64,000 nucleotides of DNA from positions 100,481-164,480 of the forward strand of contig CAVYGQ010000001.1 in assembly GCA_963768175.1 (NCBI GenBank). The letters are read 5' to 3'. Made by a program: the position numbers and the translations under genes. Origin of the DNA: Candidatus Doudnabacteria bacterium. Its GTDB lineage: Bacteria > Patescibacteriota > Doudnabacteria > UBA920. Under the pieces are notes generated by a model. It ran no database searches. It was not told where the DNA came from and was given only the letters and a program-made list of their open reading frames with translations. This document shows, one piece after another, positions 14,454-48,123 of this stretch (position 1 is its first letter; each line of letters begins with the position of its first letter).

Positions 14454-14956
14454 ATGCCAAAAATAGGCAAGGAATTTTTTGTTATCGCCCATAACATCCG
14501 TTCCCTTTATAACGTCGGCTCAATTTTCCGTACAGCCGACGCTTTTGGAGTCCGCAAGATTTATTTGACCGGCTACACCGGCACGCCGGCAAACCCTGTC
14601 CATAAAAAGAAAATCGGCAAAGTGGCGCTTGGGGCAGAGGAGTGGGTGAGTTGGGAGTATTTCAAATCCGCTCAAGCGGTTATTCGCGTCCTCAAAAAGC
14701 GAAAGTTCACCATCGTCGGTTTGGAAAACAACGTCCCCCCTCTTATTTTAAGAGGGGCCAGGGGGTGATATTATTACCAAAATTCAAGCCCAAATTCCCG
14801 CTAGTCTTAATTTTGGGCGAGGAAGTTTCCGGAATTAACCACGCCTTGATAAAATCCTGCGATCGACTGATTGAAATACCGATGTCGGGCAAAAAAGAAA
14901 GCCTGAACGTTTCCGTGGCTTTTGGCATCGCGGCATACCAGATATCAAAAAAATAA
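14454..14956 (+). pseudogene. SpoU/TrmH-family RNA 2'-O-methyltransferase interrupted by a frameshift at a palindromic insertion
   Basis: The N-terminal half runs in frame 0 to a stop at 14766-14768. The C-terminal half (LVLILGEEVSGINHAL..IPMSGKKESLNVSVAFGIA) continues in the +2 frame. The junction lies in ccccccTCTTATTTTAAGAggggcc, flanked by C6 and G5 homopolymers. Confidence 0.65.
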
Positions 14957-21085: not shown

Positions 21086-21706
21086 TTATGCGAACTGTTG
21101 CAACTGTCCTAAAATGGCCTGTTCCAGCTGAACAGTATCATAATGGCGTTGAGGCTTGATGTGTAAAATATTTAACTCTGAGGCTCTCAAAGCCCCGTCT
21201 AAAAAATCATCTCTTAATTTTCTATTGAAATAATTATGGGTATAATCATCCAGTTCAATAACCAAAAGTGGCGACAAATAAACTTTGTCAAAGATTACAA
21301 AATCTACTGTCTTTTTGTTTATCCTGTTAAAGTTGCTGTAAGTGGAATTTGTGCCGTATCTTTCCAGTCCGCCTTGGACTTCAATGATTCGGGATAAGGC
21401 AACCTGTGGCATAATAAAATACCTGTCCTTGATTATTTCCTGTAGCACTCCGAAAAACTTGTATTCGGTTTGGGTCATCAGGTATCGCTTTTTTCTGAAT
21501 GGATAAATTTTATCGTCTTTTTTTACTTCCTGAATTTTTGTATTGCCAGCATTACTAGGCGGTAAAGGTATCTCGGAATAATTTTGCTTTGAGCTTTTTA
21601 TGATGTAACTGGCAAGAATGATTATGATTATTAAACCAAATAAAAAATCCATAAATTTGCTTTTAGAAACACAAAGCCCCGGTCCAGCCGGGCTTTTACA
21701 CCCCAT
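21086..21706 (-). CDS. DUF2726-domain protein (NERD/restriction-endonuclease-like fold), membrane-anchored
   Basis: An N-terminal TM helix precedes the DUF2726 signature (TVDFVIFDKVYLSPLLVIELDDYTH ... RDDFLDGAL...LNILHIK). Confidence 0.55.
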   Translation of the reverse strand: MGCKSPAGPGLCVSKSKFMDFLFGLIIIIILASYIIKSSKQNYSEIPLPPSNAGNTKIQEVKKDDKIYPFRKKRYLMTQTEYKFFGVLQEIIKDRYFIMPQVALSRIIEVQGGLERYGTNSTYSNFNRINKKTVDFVIFDKVYLSPLLVIELDDYTHNYFNRKLRDDFLDGALRASELNILHIKPQRHYDTVQLEQAILGQLQQFA

Positions 21707-22000
21707 ACCCCTTTCGGGATATGACCATAAGACAGTAGCTGAACGCGGGGTTCAGTATGTCTTATGGTTTTACAGCCGTGCCTGATTAAAGGTTTAGGCC
21801 ATTCAGTTGTGATTAAATTATACCAAACTTGACAACAATTTTAAAGGGGTGTATGGTGGAGTTAGTTCATTAAAAAGTTAATAATTAAACGTAAGTTTTA
21901 TTTCTCCTCCCTCGGAGTAAGACAGGGGCTATGCCGTTTTGAACACAAAAACGGTGTGGCGTTTTGACCGCTTGTCTCAGCCATTAGAGGCCTTACAAAA

Positions 22001-44937: not shown

Positions 44938-46788
44938 TCAGCGACCATTCGGCGGTTTTTTCGGCAAATCCAATTTAATATGCAATTCTTTCAGCTGCTT
45001 TTCTTCCACAGCGCTCGGAGCGCCCATCATTACGTCTTCGGCCGAGCCGTTTTTGGGGAAAGCAACGACTTCGCGGATGTTGGGCTCGTTTTCAAGCATC
45101 ATCAGTATCCTGTCTATTCCGGGCGCAAAACCGCCGTGCGGCGGCGCGCCGTATTCAAAGGCGCGGATCATGCCGCCGAATTTTTGGTCCACGGTTTCTT
45201 TGCTGTAGCCGCAAATCTCGAAGGCTTTATACATAATTTCCGGCTTGTAGTTGCGGATGGCGCCGGAAGAGAGCTCAAGCCCGTTACCAATAATATCGTA
45301 TTGATAAGCCCGTATCTCGTCGGGTTTCTGTGTTTCCAAAGCTTTCAGCCCGCCCTGCGGCATGCTAAACGGGTTATGCATAAAGTCCCAGCGTTTTTCC
45401 AAAGTGTTGTATTCAAACATCGGGAAATCGGTAATCCAGGCCCACGCAACCACGCTGGGATCTTTGAATCCAAAAATATCTCCCAGCTTGTCTCGGAGTT
45501 TGCCTAGTACTTTGTTCACGATAACTTTTTGATCGGCGCCAAAAAAGATTATGTCTCCGGTAGCGGCGCCGGTTTTGTCGATGATGGATTTTATTTCCTC
45601 AGGAGATAGGAATTTAAGGATGGGAGATTTAAGATATTTTTCAACCTCTCCCTCGGTCCCTCCCCAAGTCTTGGGGAGGGAAGACCCATTTGGTTGGTCT
45701 GCGACCACAATATACGCTAATCCGCCCGCGCCTTCTTTTTTTACCATTTCGGTTAATTCGTCAATTTGGGAGCGCGCTAGCTCGGCGCCGCCCTGGCAAC
45801 AAATGGCTTTTACCACGCCGCCGTTTTTTATGGCGTTGCCAAAAACGCTGAATTGCGTATTCTTTAAATCTTCGGACAAATCCACCAATTTCATTTCAAA
45901 ACGCAGGTCGGGTTTGTCGGAGCCGTACAAACCCATAACCTCAAGGAAGGGAAGGCGCGGAAAAGGTTTCCGCGCGCACTTTTTCCCGGCGAATTTTTCC
46001 GTCAGCTCCACAAATAACGGTTCCATTTCCTGAAAGACAATTTCATCTCGATCCGCAAAAGCTATTTCTAAATCTAATTGATAAAATTCGCCGGGGCTTC
46101 TGTCCGCTCGCGGATCTTCGTCGCGAAAGCACGGGGCAATTTGGTAATACTTGGGCACTCCGCCTATCATCAGTAATTGTTTAAATTGTTGCGGCGCCTG
46201 CGGCAACGCGTAAAATTTTCCGGGGTGCAGGCGGGACGGCACCAAAAAGTCGCGCGCGCCTTCAGGACTGCTGGAAGTTAAAATCGGCGTAGCCACCTCA
46301 ATAAAACCATGAGCCGTCATGTAGCGGTGGATGGTTTGAATCATCTCGTGCCGCTTTTTTAGCATCGCTTGCATTTTTTCGCGGCGCAAATCCAAAAAGC
46401 GGTACTTGAGGCGCAAGTCTTCGTTAATTTCCTGTTCCTCGCCGTGGCCGTGCGCTACGGGGAAAGGCAAAGGTTTGGAAGTGTTGAGGATGGTAATTGA
46501 TGAAGTTAAAATTTCCACGCCGCCGGTCGGTATATTTTCGTTTTTGGTTTCGGCGCTTCTTTCAATAATTTTGCCTTCAGCCTTAATTACAAACTCGTCG
46601 CGGCATTTGTCGGCCGCGGCAAAAGCTTCTTTGGCTTCCGGATGAACGGCAAGCTGGACAAGGCCGGTGTGGTCGCGCAAATCAATAAAAATAACGCCCC
46701 CGTGGTCGCGCCGGGAGTTTACCCAGCCCGAGACCGAGGCGTTTTGCCCGATTTTTTCGGGCGTTTCTGCGGATAGTGTTCGTTGCAT
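44938..46788 (-). CDS. aspS: Aspartyl-tRNA synthetase
   Basis: An OB-fold N-terminus (GWVNSRRDHGGVIFIDLRDHTG) and class II motifs 1-3 (FRDEDPRADR..., GGGIDR) are present. An in-frame palindromic insertion lies at 45658-45680 (ccctccccaagtcttggggaggg). Confidence 0.95.
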   Translation of the reverse strand: MQRTLSAETPEKIGQNASVSGWVNSRRDHGGVIFIDLRDHTGLVQLAVHPEAKEAFAAADKCRDEFVIKAEGKIIERSAETKNENIPTGGVEILTSSITILNTSKPLPFPVAHGHGEEQEINEDLRLKYRFLDLRREKMQAMLKKRHEMIQTIHRYMTAHGFIEVATPILTSSSPEGARDFLVPSRLHPGKFYALPQAPQQFKQLLMIGGVPKYYQIAPCFRDEDPRADRSPGEFYQLDLEIAFADRDEIVFQEMEPLFVELTEKFAGKKCARKPFPRLPFLEVMGLYGSDKPDLRFEMKLVDLSEDLKNTQFSVFGNAIKNGGVVKAICCQGGAELARSQIDELTEMVKKEGAGGLAYIVVADQPNGSSLPKTWGGTEGEVEKYLKSPILKFLSPEEIKSIIDKTGAATGDIIFFGADQKVIVNKVLGKLRDKLGDIFGFKDPSVVAWAWITDFPMFEYNTLEKRWDFMHNPFSMPQGGLKALETQKPDEIRAYQYDIIGNGLELSSGAIRNYKPEIMYKAFEICGYSKETVDQKFGGMIRAFEYGAPPHGGFAPGIDRILMMLENEPNIREVVAFPKNGSAEDVMMGAPSAVEEKQLKELHIKLDLPKKPPNGR

Positions 46789-46949
46789 ATATTTTGACCG
46801 TAATTGCGATAAACAGTCGCCACGGCAGTTAAAAATGAATACAAAAGTATTTTACAATAAAATCGTAAATATGGCAAAAATAATTAAAGCTACAGGGGAC
46901 ACTTCTTCCAGAAGTGTCCCCTGTAGCGGTTGATCAGTTTTTGACAAAA

Positions 46950-47385
46950 ACAGAGAGAGGGTTAGAATAAATTTAACCAATCCAAAGGGACAGGAGCCAA
47001 ACTGTGTCCTTCGGGGCACTCAATAGGCTGAAAGGCCTTATCAGTTTGGTTTAAAAGGGAGGGAATGGCCATATGACTGTGACCAATTCCGTCATGAAGA
47101 ACGGCTAAGAAGATAAGTTGTCACCCCACGGACGCGATCGTGGGGACAAAATCGCCTAAGGATCCGGCTAACGGACTGGAGACCAAAGGTGCCCGGGAGA
47201 TAGCCTGCCTATTTGCCGTGGGTAAGGTTTGTACCGGGCAGCAATCATAAGCTTGGCTGCGGGCGCAGCCACTCCTTCGGCGAAGTTTTTAGGAGAATTC
47301 AGGGTAGCACAAGCTACCAAGGAATAGCGATATTCCGCCCCACTTGATGCCGGCAAGTGGGGTTCGTTTTTGTCTTTTTACAAAA
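46950..47385 (+). ncRNA. Structured ~430-nt non-coding region with an intrinsic terminator; candidate ncRNA (RNase P RNA-sized, class unconfirmed)
   Basis: It has multiple stems (ctgtgtccttcggggcac; caccccacggacgcgatcgtggggac; ggctgcgggcgcagcc). The terminator gccccacttgatgccggcaagtggggttcgtttttgtcttttt lies at 47337-47380. It sits in a 750-bp divergent intergenic gap between aspS and the exonuclease gene. Confidence 0.3.
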
Positions 47386-47540
47386 AATTTTCTATACTAT
47401 ATGAGTAAAAATCAATTAAAAGGTATGATTGGATTTCCCCTCTTAAAATAAGAGGGGATTAAGGGGTGATATTTATCATCGGCGATATCCCCTCCTAGCC
47501 TCCCCTTATACTAAGGGGAGGGAAATCGCAGGAAACCAAA

Positions 47541-48123
47541 ATGGCTTTAAAAAAAATCATACTTGATTTAGAGACACAAAAATCTTTCCAAGATGTCGGG
47601 GGGCGGGGGAAGAACCATTTGCTAAAAGTCAGCGTGTGCGTAATTTACGATTACGCCACAAATAAATATACGGCTTACGAGGAGCACGAGCTGGGCAAAC
47701 TCGCGCCGGTTTTGCAGACGGCCGACCAGATTATCGGTTATAACATAAAAGATTTTGACTTTGAAGTCTTAAGGCCTTATTTGAATTTTAATATCCACGA
47801 AGTGCCGTATTTGGATTTGTTGGAAGAAATAGAAAAAGTTTTGCAGCATCGCATAAAGTTAGAAGTCAGTCGCCCAGGGTACACTGGGCAGCGGTAAATC
47901 CGGCACTGGGCTGGAGGCACTTTTGTATTATAAGAACGGTCGTATGGATTTGCTGAAGAAATATTGTCTGGACGACGTAAAAATTACCAAGCAAATTTAC
48001 GATTACGCGCTAAAAAACCAAAAAGTTTTGTATAAAGATTTTTTTAAGACCAAAGAGATACCGTTAAAGATTGCGGAAGCCGTGCCGAGGGTTGGGGTAA
48101 AACATCAAGCGTCTTTATTTTAA
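47541..48123 (+). pseudogene. Predicted 3'-5' exonuclease (RNase H-like fold, YprB/PolB-exo-like) carrying a +1 frameshift near 47862-47866
   Basis: The N-terminal part has exo motif I (IILDLETQ) and motif II (GYNIKDFDFEVL). The C-terminal part (…TLGSGKSGTGLEALLYYKNGRMDLLKKYCLDDVKIT, the motif III region) continues in the +1 frame from 47863. The ORF track shows two pieces, 47541-47897 and 47923-48123. Confidence 0.55.

Follow-up and report, generated by a model that had tools for sequence, protein, structure and literature searches.

The window analyzed here is a 64,000-nt stretch of a Candidatus Doudnabacteria genome (GenBank assembly GCA_963768175.1, contig CAVYGQ010000001.1, positions 100,481–164,480). 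The intergenic gap between aspS, encoding aspartyl-tRNA synthetase (AspRS), and the divergently oriented gene of an RNase-H-like exonuclease contains what we regard, with moderate confidence, as a separate gene for a structured small RNA of ~400 nt. This RNA appears to be of the dual-function type, carrying a small open reading frame (ORF), and to represent a lineage-restricted family with a constant location between aspS and the exonuclease–lgt operon. Small RNAs that bear a small ORF or have a dual function are a known category, and the present family is best described as a new one of that category.

A predicted independent transcription unit in the gap

The boundaries of the unit were predicted from the sequence. 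A TTGACA-16-TAGAAT promoter and an intrinsic terminator enclose the gene and therefore predict an RNA of ~400 nt (Table 1), whose start is placed 7 nt past the −10 element. The transcript opens with AACCAAUCC, and its homologs do likewise. The terminator reads GCCCCACUUG-AUGCCGG-CAAGUGGGGU followed by a U tract. The promoter spacer contains CAGAGAGAG, and the promoter pattern TTGACAAA..(C/T)AGAGAGAG..TAnnAT is found upstream of the homologs at L001, L002, L012, L030, L040, L054, L057, L061, and L066 (loci are labeled in this manner throughout, with WIN for the window and the suffixes a and b for the first and second unit of one locus). The spacer itself (46947–46962) is AAAACAGAGAGAGGGT; at least nine species keep its (C/T)AGAGAGAG core. 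Promoter spacers are not usually conserved in this way, and the core may be a site for a regulator. The gene is probably highly expressed.

The folding energy of the plus-strand RNA is −159.7 kcal/mol (z = −4.96), and none of 100 dinucleotide shuffles folded as well; the opposite strand gave z = −3.17. Loops of the UUCG, GAAA, or GCGA type close many of the stems. A promoter belonging to the exonuclease gene overlaps the tail of the terminator and delimits the RNA unit; relatives whose gap holds no RNA keep a similar one. The RNA is therefore read as an independent unit rather than a leader. As in dual-function small RNAs, the predicted unit has its own promoter and Rho-independent terminator, apart from the neighboring mRNA, and both elements are conserved in homologs.

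A sequence-only reading of this DNA had described a run of stems and a strong plus-strand intrinsic terminator at 47337–47380, and had proposed a ~400-nt structured plus-strand transcript stopping before the exonuclease gene. The 10-bp stem with its T tract bears out the terminator. Discovery of the promoter strengthens the observation of a terminator-ended unit, which is supported additionally by the fold and by homologs with compensatory changes.

Table 1. Predicted elements of the RNA gene and the adjoining exonuclease promoter (window coordinates).
Feature	Position	Strand	Description
Sigma-70-type promoter	46941–46968	+	−35 TTGACA 46941–46946; 16-nt spacer; −10 TAGAAT 46963–46968; 11 of 12 consensus positions
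Predicted primary transcript	46975–47379	+	~400 nt; ends inferred from promoter and terminator
5' end and small hairpin	46975–46994	+	AACCAAUCC; CC..UCC-AAAG-GGA..GG
Three-way junction	46997–47049	+	P2 46997–47004/47042–47049; P3 47005–47018 (UUCG loop); P4 47026–47037 (GAAA loop)
Shine-Dalgarno-like GGGAGGG	47057–47063	+	After a U-rich linker; 9 nt upstream of AUG
Small ORF	47073–47108	+	11 codons and stop; MTVTNSVMKNG
P5 hairpin	47124–47145	+	CCCCACG/CGUGGGG, then ACAAAAUCGCC
P6 hairpin	47163–47180	+	UCCGG/CUGGA, ACGG-containing loop, then conserved GGAGAC
P7 expanded hairpin and motif	47190–47248	+	UGCCCGG 47190–47196/CCGGGCA 47234–47240; GCAAUCAU at 47241–47248
Four further hairpins	47255–47270, ~47272–47295, 47303–47318, 47321–47336	+	No counterpart in any relative
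Intrinsic terminator	47337–47379	+	10-bp stem (6 G-C pairs) 47337–47363, then T tract to ~47379
Promoter of the exonuclease gene	47370–47398	+	TTGTCT-17-TATACT; overlaps terminator tail; outside the RNA unit

A fast-evolving family in a fixed slot

By its AspRS relatives, the window falls in Candidatus Doudnabacteria (Patescibacteria). AspRS and exonuclease homologs together led to the additional contigs L054–L062, L066, and L067. The aspS and exonuclease genes are divergent neighbors in 33 species-representative Candidatus Doudnabacteria genomes, with gaps of 112–2751 nt. Across 44 syntenic loci with a measurable gap, the slot holds zero, one, or two RNA units: 12 loci have a gap below 400 nt with only the two promoters and the aspS leader, while complete tandem units are present in L010, L013, L030, and L061; some 30 units were found in total. 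Homologs were identified in more than 25 species-level genomes.

The body of the RNA diverges rapidly. An nhmmer search with the window RNA retrieved only L012 and L030 among 51 loci, despite AspRS identities of 75–88%, and the promoter and transcript start AACCAAUCC recur across relatives despite the low similarity of the RNA body. L066:607–987 is a full-length close homolog, the L057 homolog covers the first 270 nt before the contig end, the first unit of L030 is related to the window RNA, and L067 shares its 3' half; L061a, L012, L054, and L002 are more distant. In L067, a MAEFRK-type small ORF is joined to the window-like 3' half, and it follows that parts have been exchanged between units.

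Several elements are common to the units: the promoter, a 5' hairpin or three-way junction, usually AGGAGG with an AUG and ORF, the GC hairpin followed by GCAAUYAU, and the terminator with its conserved loop. Of 24 long gaps, 17 contain AGGAGG (2.9 expected) and seven contain GCAATCAT (0.2 expected). Conservation in the homologs thus extends to the promoter, the architecture, and compensatory base-pair changes. A scan of viral contigs with the 5' motif AACCAATCCNNNNGGACAGGA gave three chance matches, judged unrelated on inspection. These comparisons point to a fast-evolving RNA family, restricted to Candidatus Doudnabacteria in the available data and represented by no Rfam family.

Structure of the 5' domain and helices P2–P6

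The small hairpin at the 5' end carries a GNRA loop in relatives (GAAA, GCAA, or GUAA in L054, L057, L061, and L066); its stem is invariant, so covariation speaks neither for nor against it. The adjacent three-way junction emerged from independent minimum-energy folds of WIN, L061a, and L012, and by eye its stems vary in sequence with pairing kept in WIN, L057, L061a, L012, and L066. Specifically, the P2 strands are CCAAACUG/CAGUUUGG in WIN, CCUGUCUGG/CCAGAUGUGG in L012, CCAUCUGG/CCAGUUUUGG in L061a, and CCAACUGAU/AUCAGUUUGG in L066. P3 is UGUCC/GGGCA in the window and GUGUCCC/GGGACGC, GGCUU/AAGCC, or GCCCC/GGGGC in relatives, and P4 is GGCU/GGCC in the window and GGGUC/GAUCU, GGGUC/GACCU, or CCGACU/AGUCGG in relatives. 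L054 and L002 have one long hairpin in place of the junction.

The hairpins downstream of the small ORF follow the same trend. P5 corresponds to CCCCGCG/CGCGGGG in L067, CCCCG/CGGGG in L057, CUCCC/GGGAG in L066, and CCCCU/AGGGG in L030, and P6 to UCCGG/CCGGA in L066, L057, and L067 and CUCGG/CCGAG in L030. Because the MAFFT alignment columns were offset, formal pair counts were abandoned, and P5, P6, and the 5' domain are reported from inspection by eye and independent folds.

The small ORF and its putative ribosome-binding region

The Shine-Dalgarno-like region can pair with codons 4–6 of the small ORF (GGGAAUGG with CCAAUUCC), placing the AUG in the loop. In most units, an AUG lies 6–12 nt past a Shine-Dalgarno-like element and opens an ORF of 3–33 codons. 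The homologous peptides include MTALNSVNVNTL (L066), MNVTSSVVVNSSLL (L057), MSATMSVNLLSR (L030), MIALNSNDK (L012), and MIAANTTS (L061). Peptides of the form M.[AV][TL]NSV.. are shared by the window, L066, L057, and L030; MIA.. peptides by L012 and L061a; Asn/Lys-rich peptides of 28–32 residues by L001, L010, and L013; M[AS][DE]FR[KR].. peptides by L061b, L028, and L067; and ..VIW[VI] peptides by L017 and L049.

Among the homologs of the window ORF, codons 3–5 show synonymous changes, and Ala, Thr, Leu, and Asn codons vary at their third positions. The ..RLWWS peptides of L027 and L035 (MKGRLWWS) differ by three synonymous and zero non-synonymous changes over eight codons. Such synonymous-type patterns, together with the AUG and its 9-nt distance from the Shine-Dalgarno-like element, give indirect support to the idea that the small ORF is translated. 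Since the conserved early codons double as a strand of the stem with the Shine-Dalgarno-like element, the pattern may owe something to RNA structure. L005 has the same 3' elements after an ORF of 234 codons whose start resembles a signal peptide. The codon content is mixed: the window ORF has two Asn codons in 11, those of L010 and L013 have eight in 32, and a terminal WW is found in L027, L035, and L061b.

Second tandem units of the same build with other mini-ORFs are present at L061:1720–2010 (minus strand) and in L027, L035, L028, and L067, in the gaps upstream of aspS; their products are MADFRRWW*, MKGRLWWS*, MKGRLWWSAPVA*, MSDFRKLLISLLQGF*, and MAEFRKFVFVLVSNGC*. Some of these mini-ORFs end in tandem Trp codons, as trp leader peptides do, and the hosts are not expected to make tryptophan.

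The 3' domain: hairpin, GCAAUYAU motif, and terminator loop

The 3' domain is marked by a GC-rich hairpin followed by GCAAUYAU, the motif being GCAAUCAU in the window. Tight GC-rich hairpins with GCAAT[CT]AT within 3 nt occur in 10 copies, all of them in the aspS–exonuclease gap on the RNA strand, and no copy with a tight hairpin was found elsewhere in 433 kb (window and loci). The window copy is additional to these, its hairpin containing a 37-nt insert; L067 has the same expanded hairpin and motif. A covariance model of the hairpin and motif, built from seven copies, recovered, in the gap, two non-seed copies (E = 1.7e-4 and 1e-3) and a further three with weaker scores; it also gave one match inside aspS of L012 that is likely false. 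In the alignment fitted to this model, to which fitting bias applies, seven of the eight hairpin pairs change on both sides. The covariation score in this model-fitted alignment is 0.479 versus 0.156 in shuffles, was exceeded in none of 500, and collapses when the partners are slid. The hairpins at 47255–47336 appear to be specific to the window lineage and are without comparative support.

The top of the terminator stem and its loop follow the pattern ..YUG-A..YNGG-CAR.., of which the 64-kb window has a single instance; in relatives, instances are almost confined to the aspS–exonuclease gap. In several relatives, the loop is complementary to a segment 6–24 nt past the motif, with individual shuffle p-values of 0.01–0.3. 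The loop/segment pairs are UUCCGGA/UCCGGAA in L001, CUCAAGC/GCUUGAG in L054 and L061a, CCAAGC/GCUUGG in L012, UCCAGC/GCUGGA in L010, and UCCACU/AGUGGA in L048. Such pairs suggest a long-range contact in which loop and segment covary.

The motif GCAAUCAU is the exact complement of AUGAUUGC and pairs perfectly with the unit's own start region in L012 and L061a; the corresponding pairing is weak in the window, L013, L010, and L001. Sequestration of the small-ORF start by GCAAUCAU as a general rule was rejected, being strong only in L012 and L061a. The 8-mer AUGAUUGC occurs at chance level in the 64-kb window. A second site of the form hairpin, GCAATCAT, and T tract, ~1 kb past aspS in L006, L011, L015, and L019, proved to be conserved tRNA_edit coding sequence in reverse.

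Comparison with known RNA families

A search of the whole window against Rfam 15 returned three matches (LOOT and two tRNAs), with none in the gap at the gathering score. A permissive scan of 46750–47600 at E ≤ 10 yielded only sub-threshold, hairpin-shaped models of eukaryotic microRNAs and small nucleolar RNAs, all on a palindrome at 46889–46927. Among the homologs, nothing was found in 19 loci at the gathering score, and nothing consistent in eight loci at E ≤ 5. ARAGORN detected no transfer-messenger RNA (tmRNA) in the window, and 6S RNA, signal recognition particle RNA, riboswitches, T-box elements, and the other Rfam 15 families had no covariance-model match in the gap or the homologs.

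These results bear on the suggestion, made in the sequence-only reading, that the size of the transcript fits RNase P RNA or tmRNA. RNase P RNA is recognized by a match to RF00010 or RF00011 that includes the P4 core, whose strands, GAGGAAAGUCC and ACAGAA...GGCUUA, lie ~290 nt apart. Neither model matched at the gathering score or at E ≤ 10, and the homologs gave no match. Two strings at 47059–47070 and 47097–47108 loosely resemble P4; they are only ~35 nt apart and are therefore unable to form it. RNase P RNA is also expected to be essential, single-copy, and slowly evolving; of the 44 loci, 12 have an empty slot and others have two units in it. A tmRNA has a tRNA-like domain with an acceptor stem, a T arm, and a 3' CCA, as well as a tag frame without a Shine-Dalgarno sequence or AUG that encodes a hydrophobic tail. 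Here, the 3' end is an intrinsic terminator, and the ORF has a Shine-Dalgarno-like element and an AUG and ends in ..MKNG. Since neither Rfam nor ARAGORN gave a match and a terminator stands in place of a tRNA-like CCA end, the size-based assignment is rejected; length is the sole likeness, and the defining features of both RNAs are absent. The Rfam scan that the same reading had proposed as a check returned no match in the gap for RNase P RNA, tmRNA, 6S RNA, or the ornate RNAs.

The case for a housekeeping RNA in divergent form, be it RNase P RNA, tmRNA, or 6S RNA, consists only of the ~400-nt length and rich structure. Beyond the negative searches, the terminator end, and the empty slots, the RNA is largely unalignable among relatives although their AspRS sequences are 80–88% identical, and it varies more than a housekeeping RNA should. 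The probability of this explanation is negligible, and it is refuted within the reach of the tools used.

Interpretation of the RNA gene

The preferred explanation, a structured small RNA with a small ORF, accounts for the conserved parts as follows. In each unit, a near-consensus promoter would drive an RNA with a structured 5' domain, here the small hairpin and three-way junction, followed by a Shine-Dalgarno-like element and a very short ORF whose start is held inside a hairpin. Ribosomes would load on this tiny ORF, and the body of the RNA would act through conserved exposed elements, with the 3' hairpins presenting GCAAUYAU single-stranded beside the GC hairpin. The most likely mode of action would be pairing of GCAAUCAU with AUGAUUGC-like start regions, either in trans or in the unit's own small ORF.

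Several observations weigh against this explanation. The window copy of the hairpin and motif scores weakly in the covariance model (E = 3.3), a consequence of its 37-nt insert. The match of the terminator loop to the post-motif segment is unconvincing in the window itself, where the pairing of the start codon region with the motif is also no better than that in 13% of control windows. The comparisons of helices P2–P6 involve four to six sequences and were made by eye. L054 lacks a plausible start codon and L002 lacks an AUG (a possible UUG would open five codons), and both keep the RNA elements; peptide-level conservation in other units suggests that the peptide matters. With the ORF lost in some units but the peptide conserved in others, the family may be functionally mixed. 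Furthermore, the family is seen only beside aspS, the loci examined being aspS neighborhoods, and a metagenome scan with the promoter pattern TTGACAAAANCAGAGAGAGN{2,4}TANNAT gave two matches that have no relation to the family, the promoter of a protein gene and a different structured region.

The same parts can be assembled into other explanations. If the unit were the mRNA of a small peptide, its 11-residue product (3–33 residues in relatives) would be the functional entity, and the folded 3' region would only stabilize or terminate the message. This is consistent with the strong Shine-Dalgarno-like element and AUG of most units, with the synonymous-type substitutions in the MKGRLWWS, M[AS][DE]FR[KR].., ..VIW[VI], and M.[AV][TL]NSV groups, and with the 3' elements that follow the 234-codon ORF of L005. 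However, the ORF length ranges from 3 to 33 codons, the RNA elements outlast the start codon in L054 and L002, the early codons double as the stem pairing with the Shine-Dalgarno-like element, and the conserved, covarying 5' and 3' structures and sequence-specific motifs exceed what a terminator needs. We consider a peptide mRNA unlikely, while granting it some weight. Alternatively, the unit could be a ribosome-dependent attenuator, a leader of the exonuclease–lgt operon in which translation of the small ORF decides whether the terminator forms. It lies on the strand of the operon and directly upstream of it, it ends in a terminator, and its ORFs resemble leader ORFs in the tandem Trp ends of L027, L035, and L061b and the Asn-rich frames of L010 and L013. 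What makes an attenuator improbable is that the conserved promoter of the exonuclease gene lies past the terminator and is present in RNA-less relatives as well, that the small-ORF stop is separated from the terminator by ~230 nt and approximately eight stable hairpins, and that the slot may hold two complete tandem units (L010, L013, L030, and L061) or none. In addition, inspection by eye revealed no alternative antiterminator pairing, and the operon is unconnected with the supply of Trp or Asn.

A non-functional origin, in which a hypervariable spacer or a decaying remnant of inserted DNA folds by chance, would suit the variation in presence and copy number among close relatives, the mosaic make-up exemplified by L067, and the four window hairpins that lack counterparts elsewhere. 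Such an origin does not agree with a near-consensus promoter and a terminator kept across many species, with compensatory changes that preserve helix pairing, or with short motifs that stay fixed while their surroundings change, and we consider it very improbable.

Features adjoining the RNA gene

The aspS gene occupies 44938–46788 on the minus strand, with its start at 46788 (Pfam tRNA-synt_2, GAD, and OB fold), and the exonuclease gene (PF13482) begins with an ATG at 47541 on the plus strand and is followed by lgt, forming the exonuclease–lgt operon. The intervening gap, which had been estimated at ~750 bp, measures 752 nt from 46788 to 47541. It is conspicuous, as the sequence-only reading stated, but not unique: according to the ORF list, several gaps in the window exceed 500 nt. 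The description of the gap as non-coding is only partly correct, the Shine-Dalgarno-like sequence and the 11-codon ORF having been overlooked. A protein-coding gap was rejected, as no ORF on either strand had a Pfam match.

A perfect 18+18-nt palindrome, GCTACAGGGGACACTTCT-GGA-AGAAGTGTCCCCTGTAGC, is situated at 46889–46927 between the divergent promoters of aspS and the RNA gene. Its outer arms are CTACAG/CTGTAG, and CTACAG(A) words are repeated through the exonuclease promoter region of L018, L019, L027, L028, L035, L043, L049, L055, and L061. The palindrome and these words may constitute an operator for a transcription factor.

The 5' leader of the exonuclease gene forms hairpins at 47437–47457, 47464–47493, and 47499–47521, which are nearly identical in L054 and L066. 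The first and last of these correspond to two hairpins that the earlier reading had noticed correctly, with coordinates off by 4 and 2 nt; they sit past the promoter of the exonuclease gene and hence outside the RNA. The 47437–47457 hairpin is a member of a dispersed family, CCCCT..AGGGG occurring eight times in the window versus 1.1 expected. A close copy at 14737–14757 is followed by the same GGGGTGATATT (to 14775), seemingly within coding sequence, and the gap of L043 has many similar GGGGAGGG hairpins. The CCCCT..AGGGG hairpins look like a small dispersed hairpin repeat. The exonuclease gene itself (47541–48123, plus strand) is broken: frame 1 ends at the TAA at 47895–47897 after 118 codons, and the remainder continues in another frame to ~48123. 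Its relatives have 192–193 residues, and the 118-residue product is recorded in that form in the public assembly (P0121). A frameshift, a pseudogene, or an error of assembly would each account for the break.

On the opposite side of the gap, the 5' untranslated region (UTR) of aspS contains a conserved hairpin directly before the start codon (46792–46835, minus strand), found in 35 of 41 loci. Its upper stem covaries (GCGA/UCGC, CCGA/UCGG, CCCA/UGGG, CCCG/CGGG, and CUGA/UCAG), and its invariant 7-nt loop, YUGUYUA, can be read as U33-G34-U35-Y36. At the anticodon position, 15 loci have GUC (Asp) and 18 have GUU (Asn), and two more loci have the variant loop YUGUUAA. Rfam gave no match for this hairpin. 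It looks like a candidate mimic of the tRNA-Asp/Asn anticodon arm and would be in keeping with a non-discriminating AspRS that regulates its own gene, for which the E. coli thrS operator offers an analogy. Pairing of the RNA with the aspS leader was tried and rejected, being no better than in shuffles, as was a decoy role of the RNA through anticodon-like GUC/GUU loops, for which only scattered, unconserved matches were found.

A more far-reaching proposal would make the slot home to riboregulators of a new class, coupled to translation. Their modular, recombining RNA cassettes would have a tiny ORF (with Asn codons, rich in Asn, or with a Trp-Trp end) that reports charged-tRNA or ribosome status to a structured 3' effector domain, composed of the hairpin-GCAAUYAU element and a terminator loop in covarying long-range contact, and they would form a local, RNA-based control hub for Asp/Asn decoding with the anticodon mimic of the aspS leader in a reduced patescibacterial genome. 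We regard this proposal as speculative and quite unlikely.

Two further structured elements were noted apart from the gap. LOOT RNA (RF03000) matches at 21690–21800 on the minus strand with 70.3 bits (gathering score 46.4; E = 3.5e-11), at the 3' end of the ORF at 21086–21706. The structured metagenomic match to the promoter pattern, L053:2530–2870 (plus strand; JGI contig Ga0334722_10057537), is unrelated to the RNA family; the pattern is followed by ~330 nt of structured sequence whose last part is a tRNA-like T arm (GGTTCAAGTCCCTGG), with a terminator after it. This element may be a tmRNA or a tRNA-like element.

Significance and relation to known systems

The locus constitutes a defined promoter-to-terminator RNA gene with a recognizable signature, namely the Shine-Dalgarno-like element with its mini-ORF, the hairpin-GCAAUYAU element, and the terminator loop. 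The evolution of the family is unusual in its presence and absence, tandem copies, and mosaic parts, and the analysis corrects an annotation as RNase P RNA or tmRNA that would be tempting but wrong. Patescibacteria (candidate phyla radiation, CPR) are mostly uncultured; the family can be modeled, searched for in all Patescibacteria genomes, and sought in metatranscriptomes. A literature search on regulatory RNAs of CPR/Patescibacteria, the motif, or the locus found nothing relevant. If the RNA is a true small-ORF-bearing riboregulator, this class would extend to ultra-small symbiotic bacteria.

The dual-function small RNAs SgrS/SgrT, RNAIII/delta-hemolysin, and SR1/SR1P combine a promoter, an intrinsic terminator, a structured body, a short ORF with a ribosome-binding site, and a pairing seed. 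As far as its sequence tells, the window RNA resembles them in having its own promoter and terminator, a structured body, a short ORF with a putative ribosome-binding site, and a candidate seed. It differs in bearing no sequence or Rfam relation to them, in its CPR host, and in an ORF that is far shorter (11 codons; 3–33 in the family) and dispensable in some units.

The small RNA rnTrpL of Sinorhizobium meliloti derives from an attenuator, and its leader peptide, peTrpL, acts in trans as well (PMC6614838, PMC7298713). It shares with the window RNA an end at a terminator and a tiny ORF, and the ORFs of some relatives of the latter end in tandem Trp codons (MKGRLWWS, MADFRRWW). rnTrpL lies upstream of trpE(G), which it attenuates, whereas the gene downstream of the window RNA has its own promoter and is unrelated to Trp, and the window ORF has no Trp codon.

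The window RNA is also comparable with the raiA motif, ROOL, GOLLD, OLE, and LOOT RNAs in its length, its many hairpins with stable tetraloops, and its narrow phylogenetic range. Unlike these RNAs, to which it shows no match, it has far lower sequence conservation and a mosaic organization, and it contains an internal Shine-Dalgarno-like element and ORF.

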